From: a virus
Taxonomy: Duplodnaviria; Heunggongvirae; Uroviricota; Caudoviricetes
Direction: 5' to 3' (one strand)
Length of the DNA: 64,000 nucleotides
IMG/VR virus record: IMGVR_UViG_3300000976_000008
Location: 175,223 to 239,222 of that record
Shown here: positions 5,425-35,385 of the stretch, one piece after another
Position numbering within the stretch: the first letter of the stretch is position 1
Layout: every line of letters starts with the position of its first letter
The notes under the pieces: model-generated
Database searches by the model: none
The model's input: only the letters and a program-made list of their open reading frames with translations
What the model was told of the DNA's origin: nothing
Program-made: the position numbers and the translations under genes

Positions 5425-5546
5425 GCATTCCTAATCCAATCGGGGAAGATGATGCCGAACCTCCCAATTGGGACGAGGGTCTCCGTCATGTCTCAAAGAT
5501 CGCCAGACCGACCCATATATCCAATACGGCAAACACTGCCACCAAA

Positions 5547-7762: not shown

Positions 7763-7854
7763 TTGCCCATGGCCCCTATGTAAAGAAATACCTTGGTGCC
7801 GGAATCACCCACTCGAAGGCGAAATTTCCCCACTTCTACTGTTTTCCATGTATC

Positions 7855-7894
7855 CCCAACTTCCCAACTTCCCAACTTCCCAACTTCCCCACTT
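7855..7894. repeat. 8-bp tandem repeat (CCCAACTT)x4-5; potential G-quadruplex on minus strand
   Basis: Direct reading; minus strand GGGAAGTT repeats. Confidence 0.85.
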
Positions 7895-8063
7895 TCCCAA
7901 ATGCCCCACTTCCGGGAAGGGGAATAATTCCTATTTGAGCCTTCAACCCGTCCCGCGACGTTTTCGCTCCGGAACGAGGGACCCATATAATAATTCCTAA
8001 TTGAACCTTGGGACGTTCCGAAAAATATCTCAACCGAGAGAGCAACCCGAAGCACCCCCTAAT

Positions 8064-8107
8064 ATTCCCCTCATTTCCCTACCAATACTTAGGGTTTTGA
8101 GGGGAAT
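8064..8107. other. Inverted repeat at strand-skew flip 1
   Basis: ATTCCCCTCA..CCCTA / TAGGG..TGAGGGGAAT. Confidence 0.6.
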
Positions 8108-8180
8108 TCCCTGGGGTCTCTTGGATACCTGAAAGTCCCGCCGCCCGGCAACGCACCGAGCGACGGTCTTCAGGAACGTC

Positions 8181-8429
8181 CTACTCGTCGCCGGATTCGT
8201 CGGCGACTACTGGCTCTGGGGTTTCCTCGACTGGCAGTGGCTCGCCGGTCTCGATGAGGATTGCGGCTTGATCTTCGGTGACTTTGGCTCCTGAGGCGAC
8301 GATCTTGTTGCCGAGGCTTCGGATTTCCATGCCGACGAGTGTGCGGGCTTCGTTCTCGGTGCAGTTTCGTGCTGCGATGATTGCTTTGACGAGTGACTGA
8401 GTGAGGGCGGCGAGTTGCTTCTTGTTCAT
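8181..8429 (-). CDS. Cassette protein, MNKKQL family copy 1
   Basis: Near-identical N-terminus to 14933-15154 and 15273-15488. Confidence 0.9.
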   Translation of the reverse strand: MNKKQLAALTQSLVKAIIAARNCTENEARTLVGMEIRSLGNKIVASGAKVTEDQAAILIETGEPLPVEETPEPVVADESGDE

Positions 8430-8517
8430 GTTCTTCGTTCCTGAAAGTGGGGTTTTTTGAGTGAGGAGTCGTTTGGTCGTCCTCTCTCCCTTTTGTGTTG
8501 CGAGCGGGAGTGGCTCG

Positions 8518-8766
8518 TTAATTCCTAGCTGGCCAGGTGATTGTGATCGTCGAGCCTGCGGAGTGTTCGGTGTTGTCGTCGAAGGTGATGGAACCTTCTT
8601 CAGCTTCGAAGTTGTTGCAGAGGTTGTCTTCGAGTTCGGTGGTTTTTTCGCCTCCGTTGGCGATTTGGTCCCAGATCTGTGAAAGTGTGGCGTCGTCGGC
8701 TACTTCTTGAGCGTAGTTTTCTGTTTCGCCGGAGAAGTGGCCGGTATGTTCGACTTTGACTTGCAT
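8518..8766 (-). CDS. Cassette hypothetical protein (acidic)
   Basis: Start trimmed to ATG after repeat; TAA lies in GTTAA box. Confidence 0.8.
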   Translation of the reverse strand: MQVKVEHTGHFSGETENYAQEVADDATLSQIWDQIANGGEKTTELEDNLCNNFEAEEGSITFDDNTEHSAGSTITITWPARN

Positions 8767-8827
8767 CGTTGTTTCCGCGAGGAATTGGGGAATCGTCTGC
8801 CCTTCTGTTGCGAGCAGACGACTCCCG

Positions 8828-9031
8828 TTAATTCGGGAGTTCGTGGATGCTGTAGACGGTGTCGTTGCCAACGACCCAGAAGGCGGTGAGTGAGTGTTCG
8901 TTCAGTTCTTTGTATTCGGTGACTTCTTGTCCGGCTTCGTTGCGGATGAGGGTTTTGCAGCCTTCGAGGCTTCCTGATCCGAGGATTCGTGCTCCTTGGC
9001 CTGGCTTTTCGATGATGACGATGAGGTTCAT
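8828..9031 (-). CDS. Cassette hypothetical protein
   Basis: AGGA RBS; stop in GTTAA box. Confidence 0.8.
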   Translation of the reverse strand: MNLIVIIEKPGQGARILGSGSLEGCKTLIRNEAGQEVTEYKELNEHSLTAFWVVGNDTVYSIHELPN

Positions 9032-9103
9032 GTTTGTCCTTTTGTGGGAATTGCCTGCCCTTCTGTTGCGAGGGCAGGATTCCCGTTAATCTCGGTCAGG
9101 GGT

Positions 9104-9478
9104 CTATTCCTCTGTTGTCAGCAGGGTCGCTGCTTTCCGTGCTGCCTCTGGGTCTGCGAGGGGTATTCGCCATTCGTCGCCTTCGGGTGAGATTCCGAAG
9201 TATTCCTCGGTTTTCAGGTCCACCGCGAGCCATCCCCAAAAGTCCATGTCGGCATTTCCCCTGGTGAAGTATGGGTAGTTTGCCCAGACGATCGAGAGGG
9301 CGTTTTCTTTGGCGTCGTTGATGTCTGCCCCGATTTCGGCGATCCCTGTTGCCTCGATGTCTTCGAGAGCTTGGAGGGCCAGAGCGAGGGCTGGGTAGCT
9401 TGGTTGATCTTCGGCTCGCCAGTTTTTGGTTTGTTGGCCGTTGTCGTCTTTTCTGATCTTGGCGGTGCTTGTCTTCAT
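9104..9478 (-). CDS. Cassette hypothetical protein
   Basis: AGGAG RBS after repeat. Confidence 0.8.
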   Translation of the reverse strand: MKTSTAKIRKDDNGQQTKNWRAEDQPSYPALALALQALEDIEATGIAEIGADINDAKENALSIVWANYPYFTRGNADMDFWGWLAVDLKTEEYFGISPEGDEWRIPLADPEAARKAATLLTTEE

Positions 9479-9550
9479 TGCCGTGTCTCCTGAGGGATTG
9501 GGGGAATCGTCTGCCCCTCTGTTGCGAGCAGACGAACCCCGTTAATCTCG

Positions 9551-9811
9551 CTATTCCCAATTGACGGAGAGTGGCGTGTCGGTGGCCCAGGCGGTGAGTT
9601 GCACGCAATCTTCGGTAACCAAATCCTCTGGTTCTGTTGAGTCTTCTTTCTCGTAGTCGAACGCTGGATTTGGTCGAGAGTGGGGCAGTTCGCCAATTCT
9701 GACTTCGCCGACATCAGAATTAACGGAATCCCCACCTGCTTCTACTGTGAGGTAAACTGGAAGGTCAGGACCTTCGAGAAGCTCGGCGGCGAGTTGGTGT
9801 GCTGTTTTCAT
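9551..9811 (-). CDS. Cassette hypothetical protein
   Basis: GGAG RBS after repeat. Confidence 0.8.
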   Translation of the reverse strand: MKTAHQLAAELLEGPDLPVYLTVEAGGDSVNSDVGEVRIGELPHSRPNPAFDYEKEDSTEPEDLVTEDCVQLTAWATDTPLSVNWE

Positions 9812-9873
9812 TTTGGTCTCCGAGGATGGGAATCGTCTGCCCCTCTGTTGCGAGGGGCAGATTCCCGTTAACC

Positions 9874-10080
9874 TTAGTCTCGTGGGTCTCGGAAGGCTTC
9901 CGCGATGTCGTTGAGTTCTTGAGGTTCCAGGATTTGAGTGTTCTCTTCGACTTCTCTCGGTGTCGGCGAGGGGTCTTGGAGGCAGTAGCAGTAAGCGTCC
10001 CAGCGAGCTTGTTCCGGGTGGGTGGTAGTGTTTACCTTGATCAGTCGGTGTTGGTCGCCGTTTGTAACCAGGACGAGCAT
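9874..10080 (-). CDS. Cassette hypothetical protein
   Basis: AGGAG RBS after repeat. Confidence 0.8.
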   Translation of the reverse strand: MLVLVTNGDQHRLIKVNTTTHPEQARWDAYCYCLQDPSPTPREVEENTQILEPQELNDIAEAFRDPRD

Positions 10081-10148
10081 TTTTGAACTCCTGAGGAATT
10101 TGGGGGAATCGTCTACCCCTCTGTTGCGAGGGGCAGACTCCCGTTAAT

Positions 10149-10580
10149 TCACGGCCAGTATGGTTCAGGAGCCCGATGGGTTTGCTTCGATCGTTTCCTC
10201 ATTGCGGCGATCTTGGATTGTCGAGCAGCTTCGGAGCGTTCGATTTCGTCTCGGAGGACTTCTCGGAGTTTGCCACAGTGTTCCTGGAGTTGGTGGACTT
10301 GCATGGTTGTGGTCAGTCGAGCGTTGTTTAGCAAGATCTGGTGGACGTGGGTCATGAGACCGACTTGGTAGGTGATCTTGTGTTTATTGGTGTGGTTCGC
10401 GATATCGGAGAGGATGACGACGCAGGCCTGGCGGAGAACTGGTGAGAGTCCGAAGTTGACGACGTGATCGCCTTCGTCGACGAATTGGACGTTTTCGCGG
10501 ATGAGATCCTCGTGGATTTCATCGACTAGCTTGCCGAGTGCTGTGGCGAATTCCGACAAGTGGTTGAATCGAAGGTGCAT
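10149..10580 (-). CDS. Cassette hypothetical protein
   Basis: Start trimmed to MHLRF after CAGGA RBS. Confidence 0.8.
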   Translation of the reverse strand: MHLRFNHLSEFATALGKLVDEIHEDLIRENVQFVDEGDHVVNFGLSPVLRQACVVILSDIANHTNKHKITYQVGLMTHVHQILLNNARLTTTMQVHQLQEHCGKLREVLRDEIERSEAARQSKIAAMRKRSKQTHRAPEPYWP

Positions 10581-10661
10581 TGTTCGTTCCTGAAAAGTTG
10601 GGGGAATCGTCTGCCCTTTTGTTGCGAGCAGACGATCCCCGTAAACTCCACGATTCCCCAA

Positions 10662-10886
10662 TCAGGAGTTTGGATCGAGTCCGAACTGCTTGTTCACTGG
10701 GAACATGGTCCGGATTGCTTCAGCGAGTTCGAGAGCCTGTTCGCAGGAGATCGAGCCTGTGGGATTTGGAAGGCTGATCTGCAGGCGTTCACGGAATGAG
10801 GATTTGGGATCGACTGGTCCGGCATATCGGGTGAAGAGGATTCGACCGTCAATGGCGTCTTCGAATCTGGCGACTTCTGAACTCAT
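10662..10886 (-). CDS. Cassette hypothetical protein
   Basis: CAGGA RBS. Confidence 0.8.
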   Translation of the reverse strand: MSSEVARFEDAIDGRILFTRYAGPVDPKSSFRERLQISLPNPTGSISCEQALELAEAIRTMFPVNKQFGLDPNS

Positions 10887-10890
10887 GGCT

Positions 10891-11445
10891 TCATTCCTGA
10901 AGGAATTGGGGGAATCGTCTGCCCTTCTGTTGCGAAGAGCAGACTCCCGTTAACTCTCCGTCGTTCCACCAAGCGGCACCGTCATCACTGTACGCGTAGA
11001 CAACGATGTAGATTCGGTGTTCGTCTGGACCGTCGCCAGTGTTCAGGTCACGCACCCCAAGTTCTTCGGTGTCGAGGTTTTCTTCGTCGTTGGTGAGTGA
11101 GACCTCACCAGGCGTTCCAGTGTTTGGGTAAGCACCGGCTGCGTTCAACTTGTCTGCAAGAGTCATCTCTGTTTCTCCGAGGATGGTGGGAATCGTCTGC
11201 CCTTCTGTTGCGAAGAGCAGACTCCCGTTAACTCTCACGCGGAAGACCATCGCCATGTTCGCGTGCACAGTGCCTACCGAGACGGTCGTTTCTCCATCTC
11301 GGAATTTCGCTTCCAACTCGGTCGCTTCTCCATCCGAATCGGAGGTCTCGAAGACGAACGTCCCGCCTTGGAGGGAAGATCGGACTTCTGCCGTGAGGGC
11401 TTCTTGGATTGTCGTCTGGTCTGCCTGGGTGCCTGTGAAAGCCAT
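10891..11445 (-). CDS. Two cassette ORFs fused in frame through repeats (second start at 11166)
   Basis: Frame crosses repeats at 11206 and 10928. Confidence 0.7.
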   Translation of the reverse strand: MAFTGTQADQTTIQEALTAEVRSSLQGGTFVFETSDSDGEATELEAKFRDGETTVSVGTVHANMAMVFRVRVNGSLLFATEGQTIPTILGETEMTLADKLNAAGAYPNTGTPGEVSLTNDEENLDTEELGVRDLNTGDGPDEHRIYIVVYAYSDDGAAWWNDGELTGVCSSQQKGRRFPQFLQE

Positions 11446-11517
11446 GGTTCTGTTCCTGAAAGAATGGGGGAATCGTCTGCCCCTCTGTTGCGAGCAGACG
11501 ATTCCCGTTAATTCCGA

Positions 11518-11685
11518 CTAAATCGCGAAAACTTCGATTTCCGATGCCAGATGCGGGAGAACTTCTCCCTCAATCCAAGCCGCGTTAGAGTAATCGCCGA
11601 CGTCCATGCAGCCGTCAAGCTTCTCTGTCCACTCGTCCCAAAGAAGAAGGAGGTTAGTCGCTGAGAGAACTCGTGTCTCTGGCAT
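11518..11685 (-). CDS. Cassette hypothetical protein
   Basis: Trimmed start MPETR. Confidence 0.75.
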   Translation of the reverse strand: MPETRVLSATNLLLLWDEWTEKLDGCMDVGDYSNAAWIEGEVLPHLASEIEVFAI

Positions 11686-11752
11686 TTCGCTGTTCCTGAA
11701 GAGGTTGGGGAATCGTCTGCCCCTCTGTTGCGAGGGGCAGACTCCCGTTAAT

Positions 11753-12013
11753 TCACTCGATCCCATCCCAGGCTTTGGGCGTGCAGGTCGTGAGGATTGT
11801 CGCGTCGTTTCCTTCCAGGTCTTTCAGTCGGATCTCCCAGGAGTCTTCAGTGTAGGGGTCGTGAGCTGGCTCGGTTGCTTTTTTGTGCCATTCTTCGTTG
11901 GCCAGGATCCAGTTGGCAGCTTTCTGGAGAGCGAGTTGCGGGGTTTCGGCCTCCACAATCGTCAGGACTGTTGAATCAGTCGTCAGGCGGAGACTTGCGA
12001 TGATGTGTTGCAT
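11753..12013 (-). CDS. Cassette hypothetical protein
   Basis: GAGGA RBS. Confidence 0.8.
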   Translation of the reverse strand: MQHIIASLRLTTDSTVLTIVEAETPQLALQKAANWILANEEWHKKATEPAHDPYTEDSWEIRLKDLEGNDATILTTCTPKAWDGIE

Positions 12014-12084
12014 TTTTGGTCCTCAAGAGGTTGGGGAATCGTCTACCCTTCTGTTGCGGGCAGACGAACCCCGTTAATTCTCGA

Positions 12085-12342
12085 CTAGCTCACCAGGACG
12101 CGATTGCCGGATGCCGCCAGCATGAAGTTCCAGATGTACATCTGGAGTTTGGCGAGATTCCCGGCATGTCGAGCGAGTTCCTGGTCGAACTTGGCTCGAT
12201 TTGCTCTGGAGAATGCGGTGTCCTCGACGATCTCTTCGACTCGTTCGACGAGGGTCTGCGGGCATGTGATGGCCTGGAGTTCTGCCGAAGCTTCGTTGAG
12301 GGCTGAAGCTGGGTTTCCGGCGACTGCTGTGAGGTCTTGCAT
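12085..12342 (-). CDS. Cassette hypothetical protein
   Basis: Trimmed start MQDLT. Confidence 0.8.
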   Translation of the reverse strand: MQDLTAVAGNPASALNEASAELQAITCPQTLVERVEEIVEDTAFSRANRAKFDQELARHAGNLAKLQMYIWNFMLAASGNRVLVS

Positions 12343-12404
12343 CGTGCTGTTCCTGAAAGAGGGGGAAAATCGTCTGCTCTTCTGTTGCGAAGAGCAGATC
12401 TTCG

Positions 12405-12641
12405 TTAATCTCCGACCGACCACCAACCGCCACCCCGAAGCTCAAGATCCTCGTCGGAAATCTCGAAAGTAAGTGGACCATCCCAAGCAGTGAGGACTGC
12501 TTGTAGAAGGTTCGGATCGCCAGAGACGTCTGTCAACGAGCCATTAGCTCCGAAAGTCGCACTGTGCGTTTGGTCATCTCTTATGACCTCAACCCGATTT
12601 GTCGAATCTGCCACAGAAATCGTGACCGAACTAATCGCCAT
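12405..12641 (-). CDS. Cassette protein, paralog of N-terminus of 63241-63726
   Basis: Shared THSA...AVL.AW.GP..FEISDE.LE..GGGWWS; stop in GTTAA box. Confidence 0.85.
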   Translation of the reverse strand: MAISSVTISVADSTNRVEVIRDDQTHSATFGANGSLTDVSGDPNLLQAVLTAWDGPLTFEISDEDLELRGGGWWSVGD

Positions 12642-12709
12642 AGCTTCGTTCCTGAAAAGAAATGAGGAATCGTCTGCCCCTCTGTTACGAGCAGACGACC
12701 CCAGTAAAA

Positions 12710-12910
12710 TCAGGAGCCTTTGACCGGCTTGTCCATCACGCACCCGTCTGCGTCGTAGTAGCGGGTTCGTGAGAACCGGCCACCGCCTGCTCGATCACTG
12801 TGCGGGCTTTCGAGCTTGGCTTCGATGCACCGGACTCCGTGGATTGTGCGGATTCTTGCCGACTTGACTTCGCTGTCGGCTTTGAGGCGACGTAGGACTT
12901 CTTCGAGCAT
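12710..12910 (-). CDS. Cassette hypothetical protein
   Basis: Trimmed start MLEEV. Confidence 0.75.
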   Translation of the reverse strand: MLEEVLRRLKADSEVKSARIRTIHGVRCIEAKLESPHSDRAGGGRFSRTRYYDADGCVMDKPVKGS

Positions 12911-13007
12911 GGCTTCATTCCTGAAAGAGGGGATTTGTCTGCCCTTCTGTTGCGAAGGGCAGATCTTCGTTAACTCGTCTAGAACTCTTCGGACGAGGCG
13001 ATGAGTT

Positions 13008-13250
13008 CTAGTTTGAACGCGGTGATTCCGATCCCGCGAGTTGGTGCAATCTCTGAGAGCAGTAGAGTGCAGTATCCCGGTAATGGCCAGCTTTGGGATT
13101 TTCCGGCATGGCTTCGATTGCTGCCTTGCAATCGTCTCGGACGAATCGGAGCGACGATTCCGACATCCCCTTGACATGCTTCATGAGTGACTTGTGACAT
13201 GTGAGTCCTGTTTCTCGGCACCATCCTGTGTGATCGAAGTTGGTCGCCAT
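13008..13250 (-). CDS. Cassette hypothetical protein
   Basis: CAGGA RBS. Confidence 0.8.
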   Translation of the reverse strand: MATNFDHTGWCRETGLTCHKSLMKHVKGMSESSLRFVRDDCKAAIEAMPENPKAGHYRDTALYCSQRLHQLAGSESPRSN

Positions 13251-13319
13251 GTTTCTGTTCCTGAAGGAATGGGGGAATCGTCTGCCCCTCTGTTGCGAAG
13301 AGCAGACGTCCGTTAATTC

Positions 13320-13607
13320 CTACTCAACCTCCTCCAAGACCGGAATCGCCAAGAAGATATCGCCGACCATCTGACACTCTTCACTCTTTGCGTATTCCTT
13401 GTTCAGTGTCTCACCTTCGCCTGGGTGATTCACAACCACTAGGTAGGCGAACTTCTGACCAGGTACTGGCGTGTACTCTGTGATGCTGATCTTCCAGTGA
13501 TCGTGCACTGTCGTGTTGATTGTGTGGCAACCCACATTGCCATCGACTCGGAAGTAGTGGTCGAATCCGGTTGAAAGAGCCTCTGCAATGCCGTGCATCA
13601 TGATCAT
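13320..13607 (-). CDS. Cassette hypothetical protein
   Basis: CAGGA RBS. Confidence 0.8.
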   Translation of the reverse strand: MIMMHGIAEALSTGFDHYFRVDGNVGCHTINTTVHDHWKISITEYTPVPGQKFAYLVVVNHPGEGETLNKEYAKSEECQMVGDIFLAIPVLEEVE

Positions 13608-13671
13608 CGTTCCTGAAGGAATGGGGGAATCGTCTGCCCTTCTGTTGCGAAGAGCAGACGTCCGTTAATTC

Positions 13672-13926
13672 CTAGCGATCCCTCAACCATTGAAGCAAGC
13701 TCATCATCGCGAACAAATCGCTGAAGTTCTTCGCTGAAGGGATCGAGGCGAATGCCCGAGAATGGTACTCGAAGAGAATCTTTGTCCGTTCGAGATCGCC
13801 ATCAACCCGGTGCGAAAGCTCTTCGAGAATCGATTCGGCGATTTCGCCATCGCTCTCATCATCACACAAAGTTTGAAGAGTAGTTCCGAGGTTTGTGAGA
13901 CTGGACGTCTGATGTTGTCGCTGCAT
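13672..13926 (-). CDS. Cassette hypothetical protein
   Basis: CAGGA RBS. Confidence 0.8.
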   Translation of the reverse strand: MQRQHQTSSLTNLGTTLQTLCDDESDGEIAESILEELSHRVDGDLERTKILFEYHSRAFASIPSAKNFSDLFAMMSLLQWLRDR

Positions 13927-13998
13927 TTCGCTGTTCCTGAAGGAGTTGGGGGAATCGTCTGCCCCTCTGTTGCGAAGAGCAGACGCCCGTTAACTCGA

Positions 13999-14433
13999 CT
14001 AGCAGGGAGTGAAGCCTGGTGAATGGGTCTCGTCACCCGAAACAGGCTCGTCTTCTGGACGACCGTCCTCACCGATGCGGAACACCTTGCTTCGATAGAC
14101 TCCGAGCGGCGTTTCCAACTCGATGTCCTGAAGAGTAACCGACAGATTCGGGTCGAGGAATACGGTACTCTGCTTGTCGGCAGAACCGGGATCGTCGTTC
14201 TCAAAAAAGCATAGGAACGATAGAATCAGTTCGTCCTCTTCTTCTCCGTACCAACAGATCTTGAAGACCTGAGGCGTCACGAGCCGGAAGCGGTTGCCAG
14301 CTTCGTTGATCTCAACGATCTCTTGCTGTTCGAGATCGCGGGCATCTGGGGTTGCGTCTTCTCCCAGAATACCCCAATGGCCCCATCCAAGACGTCGGAG
14401 GTATCGGACAAGGCGTTCTTGATTCGGGTTCAT
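13999..14433 (-). CDS. Cassette hypothetical protein
   Basis: AGGA RBS. Confidence 0.8.
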   Translation of the reverse strand: MNPNQERLVRYLRRLGWGHWGILGEDATPDARDLEQQEIVEINEAGNRFRLVTPQVFKICWYGEEEDELILSFLCFFENDDPGSADKQSTVFLDPNLSVTLQDIELETPLGVYRSKVFRIGEDGRPEDEPVSGDETHSPGFTPC

Positions 14434-14500
14434 GGTAGGTTCCTAAAAATGAGTGAGGGGATCGTCTACCCACGTGTTGCGAGCAGAGATCCCCCGTTAA

Positions 14501-14835
14501 ACAAGGCGGTTGAGTTCACGACTGGTGCCGTATTTCTTTCGTCTTCCGAGAGCTTTTTCCGGACGAAGAATCTTTTCCGCAGTCCCTGAGGATCTGGGTG
14601 GGATGGCCGATAGCGAATCGCTTCCAGTCCCCAATTCTTCGTTCTGGTGGCAGTTCCGTCTCCGATAGAGTGACCGTTAGCTGCGTGAAAGTCTAGGCTC
14701 TTGTTTCCTCAATCAGGCCAGGTCAAGCCTAGCGGTGGTAGTAACTCATCGTTTGTCTCCCTGCTAGAATGTGAACGGCGGAGCAAAAATCGTGAATCGC
14801 GGACGTCTAAAAAAGGAACAGCGTTAGCTCTTCAT
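14501..14835 (-). pseudogene. Cassette without an intact ORF
   Basis: ATG after RBS stops after 3 codons (MKS*); bounded by repeats. Confidence 0.4.
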
Positions 14836-14932
14836 CGTGATCTCCCTGAAACTTGGAATTGTCTTCTCTTGACTGTTGCGAGGACGGGATGGCGGTTAAT
14901 TCCGCCACCCCAAATCCCCAGGGTGTTGAGTC

Positions 14933-15154
14933 CTAGCTGTCGCTGTCGACTTCTTCGGCAGGAGCGTTGGCGGCGGCGATCAAGTTGCCAGCTTCCTTCT
15001 CATCCACCTTCGCACCAGCGGCGACGATCTTGGCTCCCAATGAACGGATTTCCATCCCGACGAGAGTTCGTGCCTCATTTTCGGTGCAATTGGTCTGAGC
15101 CATGATTGCTTTGACGAGAGACTGAGTGAGGGCGGCGAGTTGCTTCTTGTTCAT
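14933..15154 (-). CDS. Cassette protein, MNKKQL family copy 2
   Basis: Paralogy. Confidence 0.9.
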   Translation of the reverse strand: MNKKQLAALTQSLVKAIMAQTNCTENEARTLVGMEIRSLGAKIVAAGAKVDEKEAGNLIAAANAPAEEVDSDS

Positions 15155-15272
15155 CGTGTCATGTTCCTGAAAGTGGGTTGAGTTGTGTGTGCGATTTCCG
15201 GCTTGGAAATCGGGAGGGGAATCGTCTCCCCTCCCTTCTGTGTTGCGAGCCAGCATGGCCCGTTAATTCCGA

Positions 15273-15488
15273 CTAGTTGGCGTCAGCTTCGGCAGGAGCG
15301 TTGGCAGTGGCGATCAGCTTGGTGGCTTCGTCTTCGGTCACCTTCGCACCAGCGGCGACGATCTTGGCACCAAATGAACGGATTTCCATACCAACCAGAG
15401 TCCGAGCTTCGTTCTCGGTGCAGTTGGTCTGAGCCATGATTGCTTTGACGAGAGACTGAGTCAGAGCAGCGAGTTGTTTCTTGTTCAT
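15273..15488 (-). CDS. Cassette protein, MNKKQL family copy 3
   Basis: Paralogy. Confidence 0.9.
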   Translation of the reverse strand: MNKKQLAALTQSLVKAIMAQTNCTENEARTLVGMEIRSFGAKIVAAGAKVTEDEATKLIATANAPAEADAN

Positions 15489-15580
15489 CGTGTCACGTGT
15501 TCCTGAAAAGGGGGTTTGATTTTGGGACCGAATTGTCCCGTCTTCTCTTTAGTGTTGCGAGCCGAAATGGCCCGTTAACT

Positions 15581-15841
15581 TCAAGCAGCGGCCACCAACC
15601 GAAAACCGATCGGAGCAGCCAGGTTGATCGCACTGAGCGACCGTGCAGTTTTAGGGCAGCAAACAACCTCTGTGTCGCTAACCCCAAAAATCGCCGAATA
15701 AACGGAAAAATCCCCGCAATCCGCACGAACAGCATTCCTCAAGTAAACCGTAGCCTCTTTGACGCACTCGCAGCGTTCCGTATTCGTGAACGTCTTGGAG
15801 TGAAAACGACCGTAAGCAATGAAGCTGATTTCGAGGACCAT
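15581..15841 (-). CDS. Cassette hypothetical protein
   Basis: Fills inter-repeat interval. Confidence 0.7.
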   Translation of the reverse strand: MVLEISFIAYGRFHSKTFTNTERCECVKEATVYLRNAVRADCGDFSVYSAIFGVSDTEVVCCPKTARSLSAINLAAPIGFRLVAAA

Positions 15842-15910
15842 TGTCTCAATCCTGAGTTGGGGGGAAGCGTCTGCCCTTCTGTTGCGAAGAGCAGACCCCC
15901 GTTAACTCGA

Positions 15911-16279
15911 CTAATCCCAGGAAACGACCAACTCACGCCAGCGAGTTCGAGCCAACACGTCCGGATCGTTCATCGTGTCTTTGGGAACGACTCGATACGT
16001 GACTCCCTCACGAGAGAGCCATTCGAGAATCTCGCCATGAACCGAAATCGGCTTCGCAGCATCCTCTTCGTCGATCTTCCCAAGCGAGACAGATCGGGCA
16101 CCCTCTGAAGATGCCGCAACGGCCATCAGGTTAAGGACACGTTCCTGTTCCCGCTCAAAAGCCGGTTGAATCAGAAGAGTCTGCTTCTCGATATCCGCTT
16201 CCTGTGCGGCTTCGATCCGGTCACGAGCAGTCTTTGACAGCACTCGAAGTCGATCGGCAAGAAGGTCTTTGTCAGCCAT
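15911..16279 (-). CDS. Cassette hypothetical protein
   Basis: CAGGA RBS. Confidence 0.8.
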   Translation of the reverse strand: MADKDLLADRLRVLSKTARDRIEAAQEADIEKQTLLIQPAFEREQERVLNLMAVAASSEGARSVSLGKIDEEDAAKPISVHGEILEWLSREGVTYRVVPKDTMNDPDVLARTRWRELVVSWD

Positions 16280-16350
16280 GTCTCTGTTCCTGAAAAAGGG
16301 GAAGAAGCGTCTGCCCTTCTGTTGCGAGCTGCAGACGCCCGTTAACTCGA

Positions 16351-16581
16351 CTAATCAGCATCCACGTTCAGCAACCGAACAGAATCAAGAGTCTGGATCT
16401 CCATCTCCCTGAAAAAGAGATTGGAAGCGTCGCAATCGTCTTCTGAAGTCGGACCTTGACCATCGCAATCGTTATCGACACGCATCTGTTGCCGAATCTC
16501 CGGGCTAATCTCGCCTTCGATCACTGCGGCGAACGTGTCAGCAGACTTGCCATCGTATTTGGTGATTAGGGTAACCAGCAT
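16351..16581 (-). CDS. Cassette hypothetical protein
   Basis: AAGGAG RBS. Confidence 0.8.
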   Translation of the reverse strand: MLVTLITKYDGKSADTFAAVIEGEISPEIRQQMRVDNDCDGQGPTSEDDCDASNLFFREMEIQTLDSVRLLNVDAD

Positions 16582-16638
16582 TCTCTGTCTCCTTAGAAGG
16601 GAATCGTCTGCCCTTCTGTTGCGAGCTACAGACGCCCG

Positions 16639-16791
16639 TTAATCCTCGATCTTCGACATGAGGAACTCGCGAACCTCATCCTCATCGAAGCCCTTCGGCA
16701 TCGCCGTAGCGATGTAGGTCTCGACCTGGTGCGAATCCTCTGGTGGGAATCCACCCGTCCACCGTTTGAAATCACGCAAAATCGAGTCCAT
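16639..16791 (-). CDS. 50-aa cassette protein (below ORF-track cutoff)
   Basis: MDSILRDFKRWTGG...; TAATG coupling; stop in GTTAA box. Confidence 0.7.
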   Translation of the reverse strand: MDSILRDFKRWTGGFPPEDSHQVETYIATAMPKGFDEDEVREFLMSKIED

Positions 16792-17066
16792 TAGCTCACT
16801 TTCTTATCTCGAAACTCGACAAACTCGACGAACTCCTGCAGATCCCTCTCAAGATCCATCAGATCGCCATCAGTGTACGCTGTATCATCATCGATAAGCA
16901 GTAAATCGATCTCAGACTCGTTCGAGATCCTAGCTCGCTCACCAATCCTACGGACAATCCCCGCCAACTCCTCTGGCGTGCCATCCAGCTTCTCAATCTC
17001 CGAATCTGGGAAATCCCAGTAAATCGTGTCGTTCGATTCGATGCTGATGATCATGGATCGCCTCAT
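16791..17066 (-). CDS. Cassette hypothetical protein (acidic)
   Basis: ORF; start may be 17054. Confidence 0.75.
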   Translation of the reverse strand: MRRSMIISIESNDTIYWDFPDSEIEKLDGTPEELAGIVRRIGERARISNESEIDLLLIDDDTAYTDGDLMDLERDLQEFVEFVEFRDKKVS

Positions 17067-17118
17067 TGGGGGAATCGTCTGCCCCTCTGTTGCGAAGGGC
17101 AGACACCCGTTAACCCGA

Positions 17119-17316
17119 CTACTCTGTCAGGAACCTGTACGTCGTCTCAGTGATCGGCTCCGAACGCCAATCACAACCAATAATGATCCCGCGTTCACGG
17201 CACTCGGCCATCACGATCTCTTCCTCGCTCCAAGTATCCGGAACAATCACCGGCATCCTCACAACGCCATTTCGCATCATCGCGGTAATCACAACGTGTC
17301 GGTCTCGTTCTCGCAT
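17119..17316 (-). CDS. Cassette hypothetical protein
   Basis: AGGAG RBS, MRERD. Confidence 0.75.
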   Translation of the reverse strand: MRERDRHVVITAMMRNGVVRMPVIVPDTWSEEEIVMAECRERGIIIGCDWRSEPITETTYRFLTE

Positions 17317-17921
17317 CACTCGCTCCTGTTGGGGGAATCGTCTACCCCTCTGTTGCGAAGGACAGACGCCCACTCTTCAAAACCCTCTTCGAAGTTGTCG
17401 AAATCGAGAAAGAGTTCGTCGAGCGTCATATCGACCATAGTGACTGACTTGCAGGGTTTCCCCTCGTCGTCTCCATAGTCGACTTGTGTAGTGAACCAGT
17501 CCCACGTCACGACCTGGTCTTTGGTTTCTAGCCACTTAGCTTTGAACAACCGACAAAAGTCCACAGTAGTCACATACCACTTGTCTCGACAGTTCCAATC
17601 GTTCAAATGGATGAGTATCTTGTCCACGTTCGTCTCCTGTTGGGGGAATCGTCTACCCCTCTGTTGCGAAGGACAGACGCCCAGCCTCTCCCAGAACGAA
17701 GTCGGTCGTTTCTTCAAATCTGACCAGATCTCGGCATTCACTCGACGAGCAATCGACTCAAAGATCGGACCGAAAACCATCGCCGCGTCCCACTTCAAAG
17801 AATCCGCCTTCTCTTTAGCGATCGCCAGACGAGACTCGAACTCCTCATCGCCCAGGCGTTCCCGATCGTCCGCTTCTCGCTGTTCGGCTTCACTCTTCGA
17901 CTCAATCGTCCATTCTGCCAT
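17316..17921 (-). CDS. Two cassette ORFs fused through truncated repeats (second start GTG 17627)
   Basis: Frame crosses repeats at 17662 and 17351. Confidence 0.7.
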   Translation of the reverse strand: MAEWTIESKSEAEQREADDRERLGDEEFESRLAIAKEKADSLKWDAAMVFGPIFESIARRVNAEIWSDLKKRPTSFWERLGVCPSQQRGRRFPQQETNVDKILIHLNDWNCRDKWYVTTVDFCRLFKAKWLETKDQVVTWDWFTTQVDYGDDEGKPCKSVTMVDMTLDELFLDFDNFEEGFEEWASVLRNRGVDDSPNRSE

Positions 17922-17997
17922 CGTTTCGTCTCCTGCGGGTTGGGGAATCGTCTGCCCCTCTGTTGCGAGCAAACCTCCAACGTTAACCCAACACCAC

Positions 17998-18046
17998 AGA
18001 CTTCTCAAGACTTCTCAAGACTTCTCAAGACTTCTCAAGACTTCTC
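17998..18046. repeat. 10-bp tandem repeat (AGACTTCTCA)x~5
   Basis: Direct reading; lies between divergent motif copies. Confidence 0.9.
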
Positions 18047-18050
18047 CGAA

Positions 18051-18076
18051 TTAACGGACGATTCTCAACCGCAACA
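18051..18076 (+). promoter_or_regulatory. Inverted copy of the core motif preceding a plus-strand gene
   Basis: TTAAC-N13-CCGCAACA, 38 bp upstream of ATG 18114. Confidence 0.8.
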
Positions 18077-18113
18077 GGAAAGCATCGAGATTCCCAAGAA
18101 CACGGAGAAAACG

Positions 18114-18311
18114 ATGAAAACGATCAACGTCACCCGCAAACAATACGACAACCTCGTCACCAGCGGCCAAATCCCACCAGAACCCCTCTGGCGATCCTTC
18201 CTTCGAAACTGGCACATTGGCGGAGTCCGAGTCACCGGAACCACCGACCAAATGCAAGATCTCCAAAAACGCCTAGTCAAAGGAAACCTCATCGCCAACG
18301 GCCAGAACTAA
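18114..18311 (+). CDS. Plus-strand cassette hypothetical protein
   Basis: GGAG RBS, own motif copy, downstream hairpin. Confidence 0.8.
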   Translation: MKTINVTRKQYDNLVTSGQIPPEPLWRSFLRNWHIGGVRVTGTTDQMQDLQKRLVKGNLIANGQN

Positions 18312-18315
18312 AAAG

Positions 18316-18349
18316 GGGTGGTCTCAGAAACCCCTCACCGAGACCACCC
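18316..18349. terminator. Hairpin between convergent genes
   Basis: GGGTGGTCTC / GAGACCACCC. Confidence 0.6.
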
Positions 18350-18364
18350 AAGCTAGTCGCCCAC

Positions 18365-19111
18365 CTAGCTGACCGACCAACGGTCCGCATCAGAAGCACC
18401 CTCCAAGAACTCAGGAGCATCCAACAAAACCGAACGAGTCTCAGCAGCATCAGGCCACCGCACCCCGTAATTCCTCGCACAAACCTTCCCACAACCCGCA
18501 ATCTTCGACTGCACCTGCGTCAAACGAGCCGGGCAATAACAGCACTTCCCCGAAGCTCTCCCAATCTCACTAATCACCCGAGACGGATCAACCGCCACCC
18601 GACGCAACAACGCCTCCACCTTCACATCATAATTCCGCCGACAATCCCACTCATCCCCATTGATGTAACCATAGAAGATCCCACCAAACGAAGGTGAATC
18701 CGACACGCTCAGGGATTTCTTCCGAGTCCAGCGAAGACAAACCGTCACCCCACCCGCCTCAAGCGTAATCGACGGACGCTGCAAAAACTTCGCCGCATTC
18801 GCCACATGATCAGTAATCGCCTGAAACCCCTGGCGAACACTCCCCCGATTTCCTGCTTGGAAACGATCCGGATGATCATGCTTCGCCACATAAAACGCAG
18901 CCCAAGTCTCATGGGACCTCTTCCACCCACCAAACCGCTCATAACCATCAACCAACCGCAACGCATGAGGACCAGAAACCCTCCCAGAAGAAGTCAACTC
19001 CTTCAACCGCCCAAAAAGAGCAGGCTTGTTCGGATGATTGCTGACGAAAGTCACTTTGCCCAAACGACTCGAAACAGTGAACTCATTCTTAGCCGGTGCT
19101 GCAACAGTCAT
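18365..19111 (-). CDS. Protein with C-terminal DUF6011-like zinc-binding motif
   Basis: GKCCYCPARLT...SKIAGCGKVCA. Confidence 0.7.
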   Translation of the reverse strand: MTVAAPAKNEFTVSSRLGKVTFVSNHPNKPALFGRLKELTSSGRVSGPHALRLVDGYERFGGWKRSHETWAAFYVAKHDHPDRFQAGNRGSVRQGFQAITDHVANAAKFLQRPSITLEAGGVTVCLRWTRKKSLSVSDSPSFGGIFYGYINGDEWDCRRNYDVKVEALLRRVAVDPSRVISEIGRASGKCCYCPARLTQVQSKIAGCGKVCARNYGVRWPDAAETRSVLLDAPEFLEGASDADRWSVS

Positions 19112-19223
19112 ACGCTCGATTTCCTGCTTGGAAAAAGGATTGGGGGAATTGTACCCTATTGTTGCAGAGGAATACTCCCCGTTAAATGCACCCCACACGC
19201 CCGATTTCCTGCCTAGAAATCTC

Positions 19224-19478
19224 TCAACCCTCGCTGGGAATATAACTATGCTCCGTGAAATAATAAACCTTAGCAAGAACACCCATCTTCTCGCAAAGAG
19301 AAATTATCCGGTCACACGTTTCCCCAACCCCCTCAGAGAAACCAATACCAAACTCGACTCGGACAATAAACTCCCTATTAGTAGTTGATCCCTCAATAAC
19401 ACTCTGAACCCTCACATTCATCATATTACACAACATCAACTCAATAGCGAGTTTGATAGTCTTATCATCAGCCATCAC
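19224..19478 (-). CDS. Hypothetical protein
   Basis: ORF. Confidence 0.7.
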   Translation of the reverse strand: MMADDKTIKLAIELMLCNMMNVRVQSVIEGSTTNREFIVRVEFGIGFSEGVGETCDRIISLCEKMGVLAKVYYFTEHSYIPSEG

Positions 19479-19559
19479 GCCCGATTTCCCACCTGGAAAT
19501 AAGAGAAGGGGCAGCGTTAACAGTGATCCCCATCACCCGCTGCCCCTCGCAGGAACACA

Positions 19560-20201
19560 CTACTTTTTCTCAAAAACCCGGACCACGTAGTCAGTCACCA
19601 CACCACGCTCGCCCTTCACACCACCATGCGAATCCTCTTCCAACGTCGTGAACCGCTCAACCCCATCAGGCAAGAAATCCAACGTCGATTGAACCCCCTG
19701 CTGATAACCAAACGCCACATCATGAGTCTCAAACCGCTTCTCCAACGCCAACCTCGCAGGCGGATCAGGCAATTCATCCACCAAATCAGCCCACATCTCC
19801 TGCTCAGCCTCCTCAACGCAACTCGAATTCAAACCATGAGTCTGATCCGCCACATCATGCAACCGAGATGCCGCCAACCGACAAAACCGATCCGTCAAAC
19901 GAGGACTATCCGGCTCAATCGAACCCTCCATCACAGCACCAAGATCACCCGCAATCGTCTTCCGAGAAACCGTGGACACCACAAACAACTCATCCGGATC
20001 AAGCCGATTAGACTGAGCTTCCATTGAATCCTCCGAAAACGTAACCCGATCCCATTTACCATCCTCAGTGCTCCACCGCCAAGCCTCCCTAAAACCAGCA
20101 GCCAACACATACCTCTTCTCAGGGAAATAATCCCACTTATTACCAGACACACCAACAGCCCACCGCTGATCAGCAAACTCTTGAAGAGGAGGTCCCGACA
20201 T
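19560..20201 (-). CDS. Cassette hypothetical protein
   Basis: Trimmed start after repeat. Confidence 0.75.
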   Translation of the reverse strand: MSGPPLQEFADQRWAVGVSGNKWDYFPEKRYVLAAGFREAWRWSTEDGKWDRVTFSEDSMEAQSNRLDPDELFVVSTVSRKTIAGDLGAVMEGSIEPDSPRLTDRFCRLAASRLHDVADQTHGLNSSCVEEAEQEMWADLVDELPDPPARLALEKRFETHDVAFGYQQGVQSTLDFLPDGVERFTTLEEDSHGGVKGERGVVTDYVVRVFEKK

Positions 20202-20269
20202 AATCACTGTTCCTGAAAGAATTGGGGAATTGTCTACCAAACTATTGCAAAACAAATGACCCCGTTAAA

Positions 20270-20569
20270 TCAAGCCCCATGATTCCCAGGCAGCAATACA
20301 AGATCCAACTTCAAATCCGTCACCACAGTCCGCTCCTGAACAATCGAACAAGTCGAAAGCCGATGCCCAAAAACCGAACAATCCTCCGGCGACACCAAGG
20401 AATCCCCCGAAAAAGCCTCAAACACCGTCACACCCCCATCCGACTCAAGATGAACATCAATCAAATCGAACAAACCACGCAACGAAAACGCCGTCAACTC
20501 CCCATCCGAATCCCCAATCGTCTCACCAAAATGATCGACCAAAGAAAAAGACTCAACAGTCCTCGACAT
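20270..20569 (-). CDS. Cassette hypothetical protein
   Basis: Trimmed start MSRTV. Confidence 0.7.
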   Translation of the reverse strand: MSRTVESFSLVDHFGETIGDSDGELTAFSLRGLFDLIDVHLESDGGVTVFEAFSGDSLVSPEDCSVFGHRLSTCSIVQERTVVTDLKLDLVLLPGNHGA

Positions 20570-20630
20570 CACTAGGCTCCAACAAAGGGGAATTCTACCA
20601 AACTGTTGCAAAACAAATGACCCCGTTAAA

Positions 20631-20816
20631 TCACTGATTCCCCCTCGCCCAAACCTCCGCAGACTTCACACACTCCGCCAACGAACCATCCTTCGGAGCA
20701 GAAAACGACTTCAACTCCACAGGCACCAACATCCCAGGCTCCGACACAGTAACCATCTCCAAAGCCGGAACAACAGTCACAGTCAACCGACCAACCTTCT
20801 GCGAACCAGGAACCAT
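20631..20816 (-). CDS. Cassette hypothetical protein
   Basis: GGAG RBS. Confidence 0.65.
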   Translation of the reverse strand: MVPGSQKVGRLTVTVVPALEMVTVSEPGMLVPVELKSFSAPKDGSLAECVKSAEVWARGNQ

Positions 20817-20892
20817 CACACCACTCCAAGGAGACCAAAGGGGAATTCTACCCCACTGTTGCAAGGGAATAACCCCCAATTAAATCAAACCC

Positions 20893-21105
20893 TCACGGCT
20901 TCCAAAAAGCCCCAAACCCATCATCCCGATTCGCAGAAAGCAACTCACAAACCCGCTTCCTCAAACCACGATCAGCCGCAGCCAAAGCCTCCGACCTCAA
21001 CTCCTTCCCCTCCAAACCCTCACCAATCAACCGCAATTCCTCAATCTCAACAATCTTCCGATGAGCATCACGAACACCCTGCTCAAAAAACGACATAGCA
21101 TCCAT
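20893..21105 (-). CDS. Hypothetical protein
   Basis: ORF. Confidence 0.65.
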   Translation of the reverse strand: MDAMSFFEQGVRDAHRKIVEIEELRLIGEGLEGKELRSEALAAADRGLRKRVCELLSANRDDGFGAFWKP

Positions 21106-21141
21106 AACACGATTTCCCACTTAGAAACAAAGAAACAGGAA

Positions 21142-21444
21142 TTACTCCCGCTCAACACCCTCCCGCACCTGAACACCATCCGAACCCAACCGAGGAATCA
21201 AATGACCCCCCGACGACTCCAAGTAATGCAAACCAGTCCCATAATCAACCCGAAGCGACAACCCCGACCGACCAACAACCGGATCAGTAGCATCCTTCGC
21301 CACATCCAAAAAATAATGACCAATACCCCACCCAAGCATGAAAAGCACCGACCAAAACACATCCCTGCGAAACTCCCGATAAACCTCCACCACCAACCCT
21401 CCAAACAAAAGAAAAAAGAAACCGGGTACTAGAGGCGGTGTCAC
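21142..21444 (-). CDS. Membrane protein with DUF6440-like motif
   Basis: Hydrophobic segments then VDYGTGLHYL...GGHLIPRLGSDG. Confidence 0.65.
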   Translation of the reverse strand: MTPPLVPGFFFLLFGGLVVEVYREFRRDVFWSVLFMLGWGIGHYFLDVAKDATDPVVGRSGLSLRVDYGTGLHYLESSGGHLIPRLGSDGVQVREGVERE

Positions 21445-21453
21445 CCTTAAACC

Positions 21454-21703
21454 GGGCGTCCTGAAGGAGAGTTACCTCCAACAATCGTCAATTCGCTACC
21501 TCGTTCCCGACACCTACAAACCACGACCCTGATGGTGGAGCAGCTCCATTCTCACCGGGACGACCCTGGGATTACCGAATCCACACACCGCCACAGGCTT
21601 AACATGAGAATACCAACTTGACAATCTCTCACCGCAAGGCCCATCGGAGTCAGCCCCAAAGCTCAATCTCGCCAGCAGTCCAGTCACCCAGAACTACGCC
21701 CCC
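21454..21703 (-). ncRNA. Candidate structured ncRNA
   Basis: No convincing ORF; follows motif copy 21725-21751; 5' GGGCGT pairs with 3' ACGCCC. Confidence 0.4.
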
Positions 21704-21801
21704 ACCAAAATCGTGATAACCAACTGTTGCCACCCAATACCCACCCGTTAAACCCACGCATTTCCCGCCTGGAAATAACCAGGATACATCAAATCGCAAT
21801 A

Positions 21802-22128
21802 TCAGTCTCTTTTAGTTGACAAGCACTCATCTATGTCCTCAAGAACAACAGCACCCTTAGTCATCACACACAACGAATCCCCAAAATCCGTCACACCAGT
21901 CACCTGAAAATCACCATCACAATGAAACAACCTCCCCTCATTCGCAGGAGCCCACAAAGGAGTCCTAACACTATCCCAAACCACCACAACCGGCACCGAA
22001 GACGGAACAAGACCCCTCACAACCCACCAACCAGTAGCCACCCAAAAATGACGCGAATGAACCGAATTCCTCGAAATTAACGAAAACAACTCCCCACGAT
22101 CCAACAAATCACTCCAAGACGCACTCAC
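21802..22128 (-). CDS. Hypothetical protein
   Basis: GTG start after RBS hairpin. Confidence 0.65.
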   Translation of the reverse strand: MSASWSDLLDRGELFSLISRNSVHSRHFWVATGWWVVRGLVPSSVPVVVVWDSVRTPLWAPANEGRLFHCDGDFQVTGVTDFGDSLCVMTKGAVVLEDIDECLSTKRD

Positions 22129-22239
22129 ATTTCCCCCCTGGAAAACCCGCACCAAAAACACACACCAACATATTACACACAAACCCACCCAGTTAAATCC
22201 ACGCACCCCAAGAACCCCCGCATTTCCAACAAGGAAACC

Positions 22240-22428
22240 AAAAACACCCAAAAATAGGAATAATCCCCCACAGAGCCACCAAGAGAAGCCCAGAAACATA
22301 CCCCTCTCCGAGGCTCTCCTTTGCCTTCCCTGAGCCTCTAACTTTCACGCGGCCCAGAGTCCGTGGGAGGGCCTTCTTGCCCTTCCCTTGCGGCACGGGT
22401 TTTTCTTTGGCTATTTTTGGGATATTGT
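22240..22428. other. Strand-skew flip 2, candidate replication origin
   Basis: Abrupt C/A-rich to G/T-rich switch; hairpin 22310-22338. Confidence 0.5.
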
Positions 22429-24488: not shown

Positions 24489-24504
24489 GGGAATTATTGT
24501 TTGT

Positions 24505-35340: not shown

Positions 35341-35385
35341 GGGGAATTGTCTACCTTAGTGTTGCGAGAGAGAATCCCCCGTTAA
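35341..35385 (-). promoter_or_regulatory. Motif copy with partial hairpin
   Basis: GGGGAATTGTCT..TGTTGCGA-N13-GTTAA. Confidence 0.75.

Follow-up and report, generated by a model that had tools for sequence, protein, structure and literature searches.

A PeSL-like array of putative promoter-hairpin units heading small ORFan genes in the hyperplastic region of an uncultured 408-kb phage

Background

Promoter-early stem-loops (PeSLs) are known from the T4-type phages RB49/phi1, T4/PST and KVP40/nt-1 (Arbiol et al. 2010, PMC2839356; Comeau et al. 2014, PMC4122927). Each runs from a stop codon through a -35 box, a stem-loop that lies between or over the boxes and contains G-T pairs, a -10 box and a Shine-Dalgarno sequence to an ATG, and the stem-loops acted as terminators (PMC2839356; PMC4122927). 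Subclasses carry the stem-loop either between the boxes or over the -10 box (PMC2839356). The promoter in these units is a strong host sigma-70 consensus (-35 TTGACA, -10 TATAAT, with an AT-rich upstream region), and in RB49/phi1 promoter and terminator activity, mini-circles and PeSL-to-PeSL exchanges were all shown by experiment (PMC2839356; PMC4122927). The units described here, known from sequence alone, form an array of 35 repeats in a 64,000-nucleotide stretch of a Caudoviricetes genome (the window; bases 175,223-239,222 of the 408,349-bp IMG/VR virus record IMGVR_UViG_3300000976_000008). They probably constitute a PeSL-type cassette array of promoter, hairpin and ribosome-binding site in a hyperplastic region (a term from the T4 literature; PMC4122927), with promoter boxes that are specific to a phage clade and unlike those of sigma-70.

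A sequence-only reading of the same stretch had likened the array to integron cassettes as well as to PeSLs. Integrons encode the tyrosine recombinase IntI, their attC sites combine an inverse core RYYYAAC with a core GTTRRRY, and their promoterless cassettes are driven by one promoter, Pc.

The genome that carries the array (CheckV completeness 100) encodes a T4-type (gp23-type) major capsid protein (PF07068, E 3e-80) that is less than 38% identical to that of any GenBank phage, the nearest being an uncultured 595-kb phage. IMG/VR contigs include many capsid relatives at 73-91% identity, of which several measure 340-395 kb. A single public DNA sequencing run contains the phage; it comes from an algae metagenome of 2016 that is probably the source sample. 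None of the public RNA runs lists the phage.

Layout of the repeat units

Repeat finding returned families of 26-27 copies with units of 32-82 nt spaced 240-507 bp apart. A motif scan (TT[AT]A[CT]-N15-G[CT]AA[CT]A) located 33 intact units on the minus strand and 2 without TTAAC between 8.5 and 22.2 kb, a region in which all genes lie on the minus strand; the resulting 35 agrees with the ~35 cassettes counted earlier. The sequence-only reading had described a ~45-bp repeat every 250-600 bp, of which the recurrence holds and the length does not, the conserved unit measuring 56-82 nt from stop to ATG. In window coordinates, with intact units given by the first T of the motif on the minus strand, the array consists of the following:

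8470..18000, minus strand: main array (part A), with a GC content of 53-55% (genome 43%) and 27 intact and 2 truncated units that each precede one small open reading frame (ORF) of 55-144 aa
18365..22300, minus strand: part B, 6 degenerate, AT-richer units at 19185, 20268, 20629, 20883, 21751 and 22196
8521, 8831, 9089, 9545, 9871, 10147, 10645, 10953, 11231, 11511, 11751, minus strand: intact units, first group
12077, 12408, 12708, 12973, 13316, 13668, 13993, 14500, 14899, 15266, 15578, minus strand: intact units, second group
15905, 16345, 16642, 17113, 17986, 19185, 20268, 20629, 20883, 21751, 22196, minus strand: intact units, third group
17329..17371, minus strand: truncated unit 1, whose homology ends at the base of the hairpin; it lacks TTAAC, and the ORF upstream reads through
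17640..17682, minus strand: truncated unit 2, nearly identical to truncated unit 1 and also without TTAAC
18051..18076, plus strand: lone plus-strand box copy of the array stretch, 37 nt ahead of a plus-strand ATG

Read along the coding strand, the 5' half of a unit comprises the upstream stop codon (often inside TAGTCGAG), TTAAC, 15 nt, GCAACA and ~7 nt; the 3' half comprises (C/T)AGAC(G/A)ATTCCCC, ~10 nt, (TTC)AGGA(AC), ~7 nt and the ATG. The order of TTAAC, hairpin with GCAACA loop, AGGA ribosome-binding site and ATG had already been given correctly for that strand. One complete unit serves as an example:

11443..11522, minus strand: representative complete unit, from the TAG stop (11520-11518) to the ATG (11445-11443)
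11507..11511, minus strand: box 1, TTAAC, proposed -35-like element, whose TAA is the stop codon of the upstream gene in many units
11486..11491, minus strand: box 2, GCAACA, proposed -10-like element, always 15 nt past box 1 and here in the hairpin loop
11468..11506, minus strand: hairpin, its 5' arm being the putative promoter spacer and its constant 3' arm, GCAGACGATTCCC, following box 2
near 11478, minus strand: predicted transcription start, C-A, 7-8 nt past box 2
11454..11457, minus strand: Shine-Dalgarno AGGA, inside the conserved TTCAGGAAC

The lone plus-strand copy at 18051 and the minus-strand unit at 17986 diverge across a 10-bp sequence repeated five times in tandem (17998-18047), and the ORFs behind the part-B units have a coding strand that is strongly G/T-rich. 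The same tandem repeat, AGACTTCTCA x5, sits where the GC-rich and the G/T-skewed parts of the array meet.

Cassette genes

Each interval between units holds one ORF, and all-against-all BLASTP finds these ORFs unrelated except for one paralogue trio (8181-8429, 14933-15154, 15273-15488), much as the sequence-only reading had described, with a short unrelated ORF in nearly every interval. The remaining BLASTP likenesses among cassettes come from frames that read through the repeat. Two features deserve separate mention:

8181..8429, minus strand: last cassette of the array, a member of the sole paralogue trio
10891..11445, minus strand: 184-aa frame that runs through two intact units, 11231 and 10953

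The 184-aa frame passes through these two units because the cassettes upstream of them have no stop codon; a fused frame, of 201 aa, is also found at the truncated units, where both TTAAC and the upstream stop are missing. Thirty cassette proteins compared with Pfam at the curated cut-off fell into no family. A PHROGs scan of 10 cassette proteins matched one, from part B, to three families of unknown function and gave no significant match for the other nine, and a search of 5.8 billion proteins with two cassettes matched only this genome's own copies. Many of the cassette proteins are acidic.

A bipartite box used across the genome

The strict motif TTAAC-N15-GCAACA is present genome-wide in 44 minus-strand and 4 plus-strand copies, where chance predicts 0.2 per strand. 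Some 20 of the 48 are found beyond the array, mostly directly ahead of a gene, and three of the four on the plus strand precede plus-strand ORFs. For most copies outside the array, as for those within it, the box pair starts on the upstream stop codon or 0-10 nt past it and ends 30-48 nt before a start codon that bears a Shine-Dalgarno sequence. Out-of-array pairs in the window are these:

35360..35385, minus strand: box pair 35 nt ahead of a 162-aa gene
34420, 35964, 38056, 38505, 55124 and 57161 (first T): other box pairs outside the array

The genes served by the boxes include those for a ResIII helicase, a DUF932-like protein, a DUF2201 peptidase/VWA and AAA pair, and WGR, NADAR and DUF350 proteins; virion genes are not among them.

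One copy precedes a gene for a structural RNA. At genome 287,439-287,650 (L119), 48 kb past the end of the window, TTAAC-N15-GCAACA lies in the 58-nt spacer of a tandem pair of opal-suppressor tRNA(UCA) genes, stopping 12 nt short of the 5' end of the second. Because this copy stands ahead of a tRNA, the box does not serve translation. Were it a promoter, its start would have to fall within those 12 nt, which fits GCAACA as a -10 box, and the second tRNA(UCA) therefore seems to have its own copy of the array promoter. None of the tRNA genes of the relative described below is preceded by the motif, so this argument draws on one case. The tRNA copy also bears on a candidate that we rejected, in which a downstream box (TAGACAAT / CAGACGAT) would be a sigma-70-like -10 element and the boxes above it upstream activator boxes: the start would then fall inside the tRNA, and the downstream box is absent in the relative.

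Beyond this genome, exact-pattern scans of IMG/VR found no match to the array repeat, and a longer box pattern gave 7 single matches there, which is chance level. A scan of JGI metagenome contigs for the repeat returned no match either; the IMG/VR and JGI scans may have omitted records very near the window. A DNA search of GenBank phages was likewise without a match.

Conservation of boxes and turnover of cassettes in a relative

The exact TTAAC-N15-GCAACA motif is missing in capsid relatives. One of these, a 354-kb record (G001) with a capsid protein 86% identical and core proteins ~45-65% identical, instead carries TT(T/G/A)AC-N15-GCCACA in 54 forward and 7 reverse copies, compared with 0-1 for a control pattern. 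The G001 sites, which are in the syntenic island, span ~209 to 277 kb, share the strand of the genes and precede small ORFs by 21-47 nt. Its commonest hairpin, GGCGGG-TTGAGG-CCCGCC, falls inside the box spacer, and nothing downstream of the second box is conserved. This comparison identifies the two boxes with their 15-nt spacing as the conserved signal and the hairpin as a movable add-on; the core of the repeat is the bipartite box TTAAC-N15-GCAACA, not the hairpin. The contig of a third relative begins with four TTAAC-N15-GCCACA sites. The earlier proposal that the repeat is an expression signal has accordingly gained ground, with the same box before ~20 other genes and one tRNA and a relative that keeps it with a one-letter change in the second box, promoter activity itself being a prediction.

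The array lies within a ~60-kb island (genome 168-229 kb) between genes that are conserved in G001, and the island has a GC content of 52-55% against 43% genome-wide. G001 has an island between the same conserved flanking genes, at 234.7-291 kb, that is also GC-rich. Only 1-2 of the ~33 cassettes have a homologue in it, at 34-39% identity and in the opposite relative order. With conserved flanks and unconserved content, the array region is hyperplastic in the sense in which the term is used for T4, and the array forms its densest stretch.

The two islands have further features in common. Segments of extreme strand skew bracket the GC-rich island here (window 4000-8100 and 18000-26000, with GC skew up to +/-0.5 and opposite AT skew) and in G001 (238-244 kb and 276-280 kb), while the genes stay on one strand throughout; skew segments around both islands indicate an architecture that is conserved while the genes are not. 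A palindrome, (C)GATTTCC-N5-GGAAATCG, is found in 12 copies in each of the two phages against ~0.4 expected (window 15195, 18849, 19120, 19485, 21761, 22130, 22223, 39545 and 42639; G001 213-276 kb, L104-L107). Most copies occupy 5' leaders inside the hyperplastic island, and the palindrome looks like the operator of a dimeric regulator common to both phages. At one island edge, both phages carry G/T-rich, tandem-like repeats on the plus strand (window 22700-24000; G001 277.5-279.4 kb), recurring every ~60 nt in G001 (TTGGTAGTTGTCTTGTTGGG...) and every ~240 nt in the window.

Maintenance of the hairpin

Single folds of the copies predict stems of 13-15 bp at -13 to -30 kcal/mol, and representative hairpins reach z-scores of -5.2 to -7.4, with none of 200 shuffles folding as well. 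Against a nearly constant 3' arm, two forms of the 5' arm pair in different registers: one yields a stem of 13 bp and a loop of 13 nt, the other a stem of 11+3-4 bp and a loop of 6 nt. Since the copies use two registers, the hairpin was assessed by single folds together with a fixed-structure pair count. Despite these registers, 26 copies align gap-free from TTAAC to GCAACA. Among register-B copies 93.7% of cells pair, compared with at most 69% when the partners are slid, and the stems show three pairs changed on both sides and many G.U substitutions. In 23 of 26 copies the predicted fold is more stable on the coding strand than on its complement (mean energies of -23.6 and -19.2 kcal/mol), which argues that the hairpin is selected in sense-strand molecules, either RNA or single-stranded DNA. 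Several divergent copies (8521, 14899, 15266, 15578 and those of part B) have other stems or none and nonetheless retain TTAAC, the 15-nt gap and (C)TCGCAACA. Copies outside the array have a weaker hairpin or lack one (z = -3.1 at 35385, +0.3 at 34420). Rfam contains no family for the repeat.

Predicted promoter and candidate sigma factors

We propose that TTAAC as a -35-like element and GCAACA as a -10-like element, exactly 15 nt apart, make up a bipartite promoter from which transcription would start, probably at a conserved C-A or T-A 7-8 nt past GCAACA. The GC-rich hairpin, which combines the promoter spacer with the initial transcribed bases, would form only in RNA reading in from upstream, and would most likely end, attenuate or stabilise that incoming transcript. 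Four parts (promoter, hairpin, Shine-Dalgarno sequence and ATG) would in this arrangement be packed into ~80 nt directly after the stop codon of the previous gene, and with one composite unit per gene each tiny gene would be insulated and separately driven.

The boxes are probably read by a sigma of another specificity than sigma-70, either the phage's own or an unusual one of the host. The array contains 1 sigma-70 consensus site where 5.9 are expected, and genome-wide there are 53 and 76 per strand against ~73 in shuffles, with no enrichment. A sigma-54 promoter was rejected by eye for want of a -24/-12 fit. Host polymerase appropriation of the MotA/AsiA type and transcription by a T7-like polymerase were rejected because the 408-kb genome gave no match to MotA, AsiA or RNA_pol; the negative for the T7-like single-subunit polymerase (PF00940) is a weak one, as that search gave no hit in any control genome either. 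Promoters of sigma-28/FliA have the form TAAA-N15-GCCGATAA; like these, the pair described here consists of two short boxes with a 15-nt spacer and a second box beginning GC(C), but only 3 of 8 second-box letters match, and no FliA-type sigma was identified.

The 408-kb genome does encode a 290-aa sigma with regions 2 and 4, which above cut-off matches only the generic sigma-70 superfamily model and for which a related-locus search found no relative. G001 has two sigma-like genes, at 267,759-268,382 (minus strand) and 208,651-209,139 (plus strand), one of them inside the cassette island on the opposite strand. We consider it possible, if doubtful, that TTnAC-N15-GCmACA constitutes a distinct class of promoter, confined to one clade of uncultured huge phages and read by a phage-encoded sigma, not by the primary sigma of the host, with the 290-aa sigma among the candidates. 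If so, the array would be a self-sufficient platform on which a gene that recombines between repeats comes at once under phage control, and the second box would drift with the sigma between phages (GCAACA here, GCCACA in G001).

The most enriched 7-mer upstream of ORFs genome-wide is GTA(A/G)ATA, which stands 15-31 nt before several large genes (genome 26174, 97625, 107543, 378666, 401761 and others). The T4 late motif TATAAATA is under-represented genome-wide, and GTA(A/G)ATA may be the late promoter of this phage in place of TATAAATA.

Recombination at the repeats

The sequence-only reading had taken the repeat to be a recombination point and had proposed a search for recombination proteins: the 408-kb genome encodes a RecA-family protein (E 1e-101), and a tyrosine recombinase was not found. 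With RecA and 35 direct repeats of 60-80 nt, homologous exchange is expected; between head-to-tail repeats it should delete, duplicate or swap single cassettes, with no need for a site-specific recombinase. Several traces are suggestive of such exchange. Both truncated copies lose homology exactly at the hairpin base, two cassettes lack a stop codon, and the two stem registers are interleaved among unrelated genes. Contigs from the same sample leave the reference at the TTAAC edge (10958, 17367, 17682) and continue into sequence that is absent from the 408-kb genome; these junctions carry an intact GTTAA and a CTAGTC-type cassette end, and same-sample contigs also show alternative junctions at units 11231 and 10953. 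Together with RecA and the sharing of only 1-2 of ~33 cassettes with the relative, the contig breaks and truncated copies suggest that recombination at the repeats is plausible. On the other side, same-sample contigs, which cannot show rare forms, contained no circle or deletion joints inside the array.

Array contigs are ~1.4x as deep as their flanks, with a k-mer depth of 29.6-33.6 (~31) against 21-23.3 (window 7000-24000, same-sample run), an excess that could reflect GC bias, a second strain with the same array, or additional copies, circular ones for example. Tandem duplication of neighbours was rejected as the origin of the array, the ORFs being unrelated and adjacent repeats not more alike.

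Comparison with known systems and weighing of alternatives

PeSLs are the nearest described counterparts, and the earlier likening of the array to them is borne out in its structural part. The parts follow one another in identical order from stop through Shine-Dalgarno sequence to ATG, with a stem-loop that overlaps or adjoins the boxes and includes G-T (G.U) pairs; its position over the second box here and in the spacer in G001 matches the published PeSL subclasses. Both kinds of unit are concentrated in a hyperplastic region before small ORFans, with few copies elsewhere, and the phage has the T4-type capsid protein, a RecA-family recombinase and hints of indels at the repeats. The likeness fails at the sigma-70 consensus: the boxes are TTAAC-N15-GCAACA, and there is no AT-rich upstream element. 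The array is also denser and more uniform (35 units in 14 kb), it sits in a GC-rich island, and its 408-kb carrier is an uncultured phage type, with a capsid protein far from any in GenBank. What distinguishes it from described PeSLs is the combination of clade-specific, non-sigma-70-like boxes, a hairpin position that varies between relatives, and a long uniform array.

Could the repeats act on RNA only? One or more long RNAs would then come from an upstream promoter, and the repeats would be intercistronic hairpins that are cut or that protect ends, with TTAAC and the GCAACA loop bound by an RNase or RNA-binding protein. Phage T7 has RNase III processing hairpins between its early genes, and the array likewise has stable hairpins between consecutive small cistrons that could define 3' ends and stabilise messages. 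The G.U pairs favour the transcribed strand, the hairpin stands exactly between cistrons, GCAACA is in the loop in all part-A copies, and the array has no recognisable consensus promoter. We nevertheless think this unlikely. The stem here, of 11-15 bp, overlaps a bipartite box with a DNA-like fixed spacing and is without the internal loops of the T7 sites; outside the array the boxes remain even at sites with a poor hairpin or none (z = 0.3 at 34420); and the 15-nt spacing is constant across two pairing registers. In the relative it is kept even though the hairpin lies in the spacer and the second box is out of the loop, as a bipartite signal read in DNA predicts and an RNA loop does not. The loop position of the second box, held by a very stable stem in 29 of 29 part-A copies and through both registers, would also be expected if the hairpin or a cruciform were itself recognised, offering a phage sigma or polymerase the -10 box in single-stranded form. 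Phage N4 has hairpin early promoters that are read in a comparable way by a virion T7-like single-subunit RNA polymerase. Such a structured promoter is very improbable here: PF00940 is unmatched in the genome (by the search that found it in no control genome), scattered copies have weak stems or none, the relative has its stem in the spacer, and the stabler hairpin falls on the non-template strand, the G.U pairs being mismatches on the other.

Two further explanations take the repeats as mobile or as sites of mobility. A selfish miniature repeat of the MITE or REP kind that has colonised the spaces between genes and does nothing for the phage might account for many near-identical copies in one region and for two structural subtypes interleaved among unrelated genes, and yet we give it scarcely any credence. 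Copies strictly follow the genes in orientation and are placed exactly after the stop and 30-48 nt before the start, Shine-Dalgarno sequence included; they have no terminal inverted repeats or target duplications; and the boxes are conserved in a phage whose repeat sequence otherwise differs. The integron likeness, in which the hairpin would be the folded site for a dedicated recombinase that moves one-gene circles, fares worst, and we regard site-specific capture of this kind as the least probable of the alternatives. The array does share with integrons a one-directional, head-to-tail row of single-gene units with imperfect palindromes between them and unrelated accessory ORFans as cassettes, and breakpoints do coincide with the base of the hairpin in two truncated copies and with the TTAAC edge in same-sample contigs. 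Against this, the tyrosine recombinase family PF00589 has no match at E <= 1 in the complete 408-kb genome and is found in all 14 control genomes, and the serine recombinase family PF00239, likewise found in control genomes, has no match genome-wide; the earlier statement that the window has no integrase thus extends to the whole genome. GTTAACG departs from the attC core GTTRRRY at its sixth letter. The lack of an attC R' box noted earlier also stands, as the alignment, read directly, has no R''/R' core pair and no inverse core partner, and the palindrome closes on its 3' side with GATTCCCC, where a core site is lacking. Each cassette has promoter-like boxes of its own in place of a single Pc, the same box precedes ordinary genes and a tRNA genome-wide, and no circle junction was seen among contigs, with the limit on rare forms given above.

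The reading that we prefer, a PeSL-type array under a clade-specific promoter, must itself be tempered by several points that weigh against it. Promoter activity, start site and termination are things that we infer from base order and position, as we do the sigma that would read the boxes and the exchange between repeats. No sigma is tied to the boxes, the sigma-like genes of G001 being only 24-29% identical to the 290-aa sigma, and by their letters GCAACA and GCCACA appear to match no -10 element that can be named with confidence. The hairpin is without a U-tract and so is not a textbook intrinsic terminator. As for recombination, the variant contigs are about as deep as the reference array contigs (27-36 against ~31), so that the variants may be cassettes lost from the reference assembly or a co-occurring strain, not recombinants. 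Similarity between repeats is no greater for neighbours than for distant pairs (permutation p = 0.14), which gives no sign of recent local conversion or duplication, and because G001 is a distant relative, with core proteins at about 50% identity, the turnover of cassettes between the two phages does not show that the repeats caused it.

Conclusions

Huge uncultured phages are known almost only as sequence. The 35 aligned copies here and the 54 in the relative most likely represent the main non-late promoter of such phages, and they supply a ready consensus, a predicted start and candidate sigmas. An array of complete ORFans is, besides, a defined place in which to seek new host-takeover or counter-defence proteins. 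The PeSL idea, that of repeated promoter-terminator units which insulate accessory genes and offer seams for swapping them, would be extended by this array from T4-type coliphages and vibriophages to a distant 400-kb lineage, and its presence so far away, under another promoter specificity, suggests a general design that is independent of the sigma in use.

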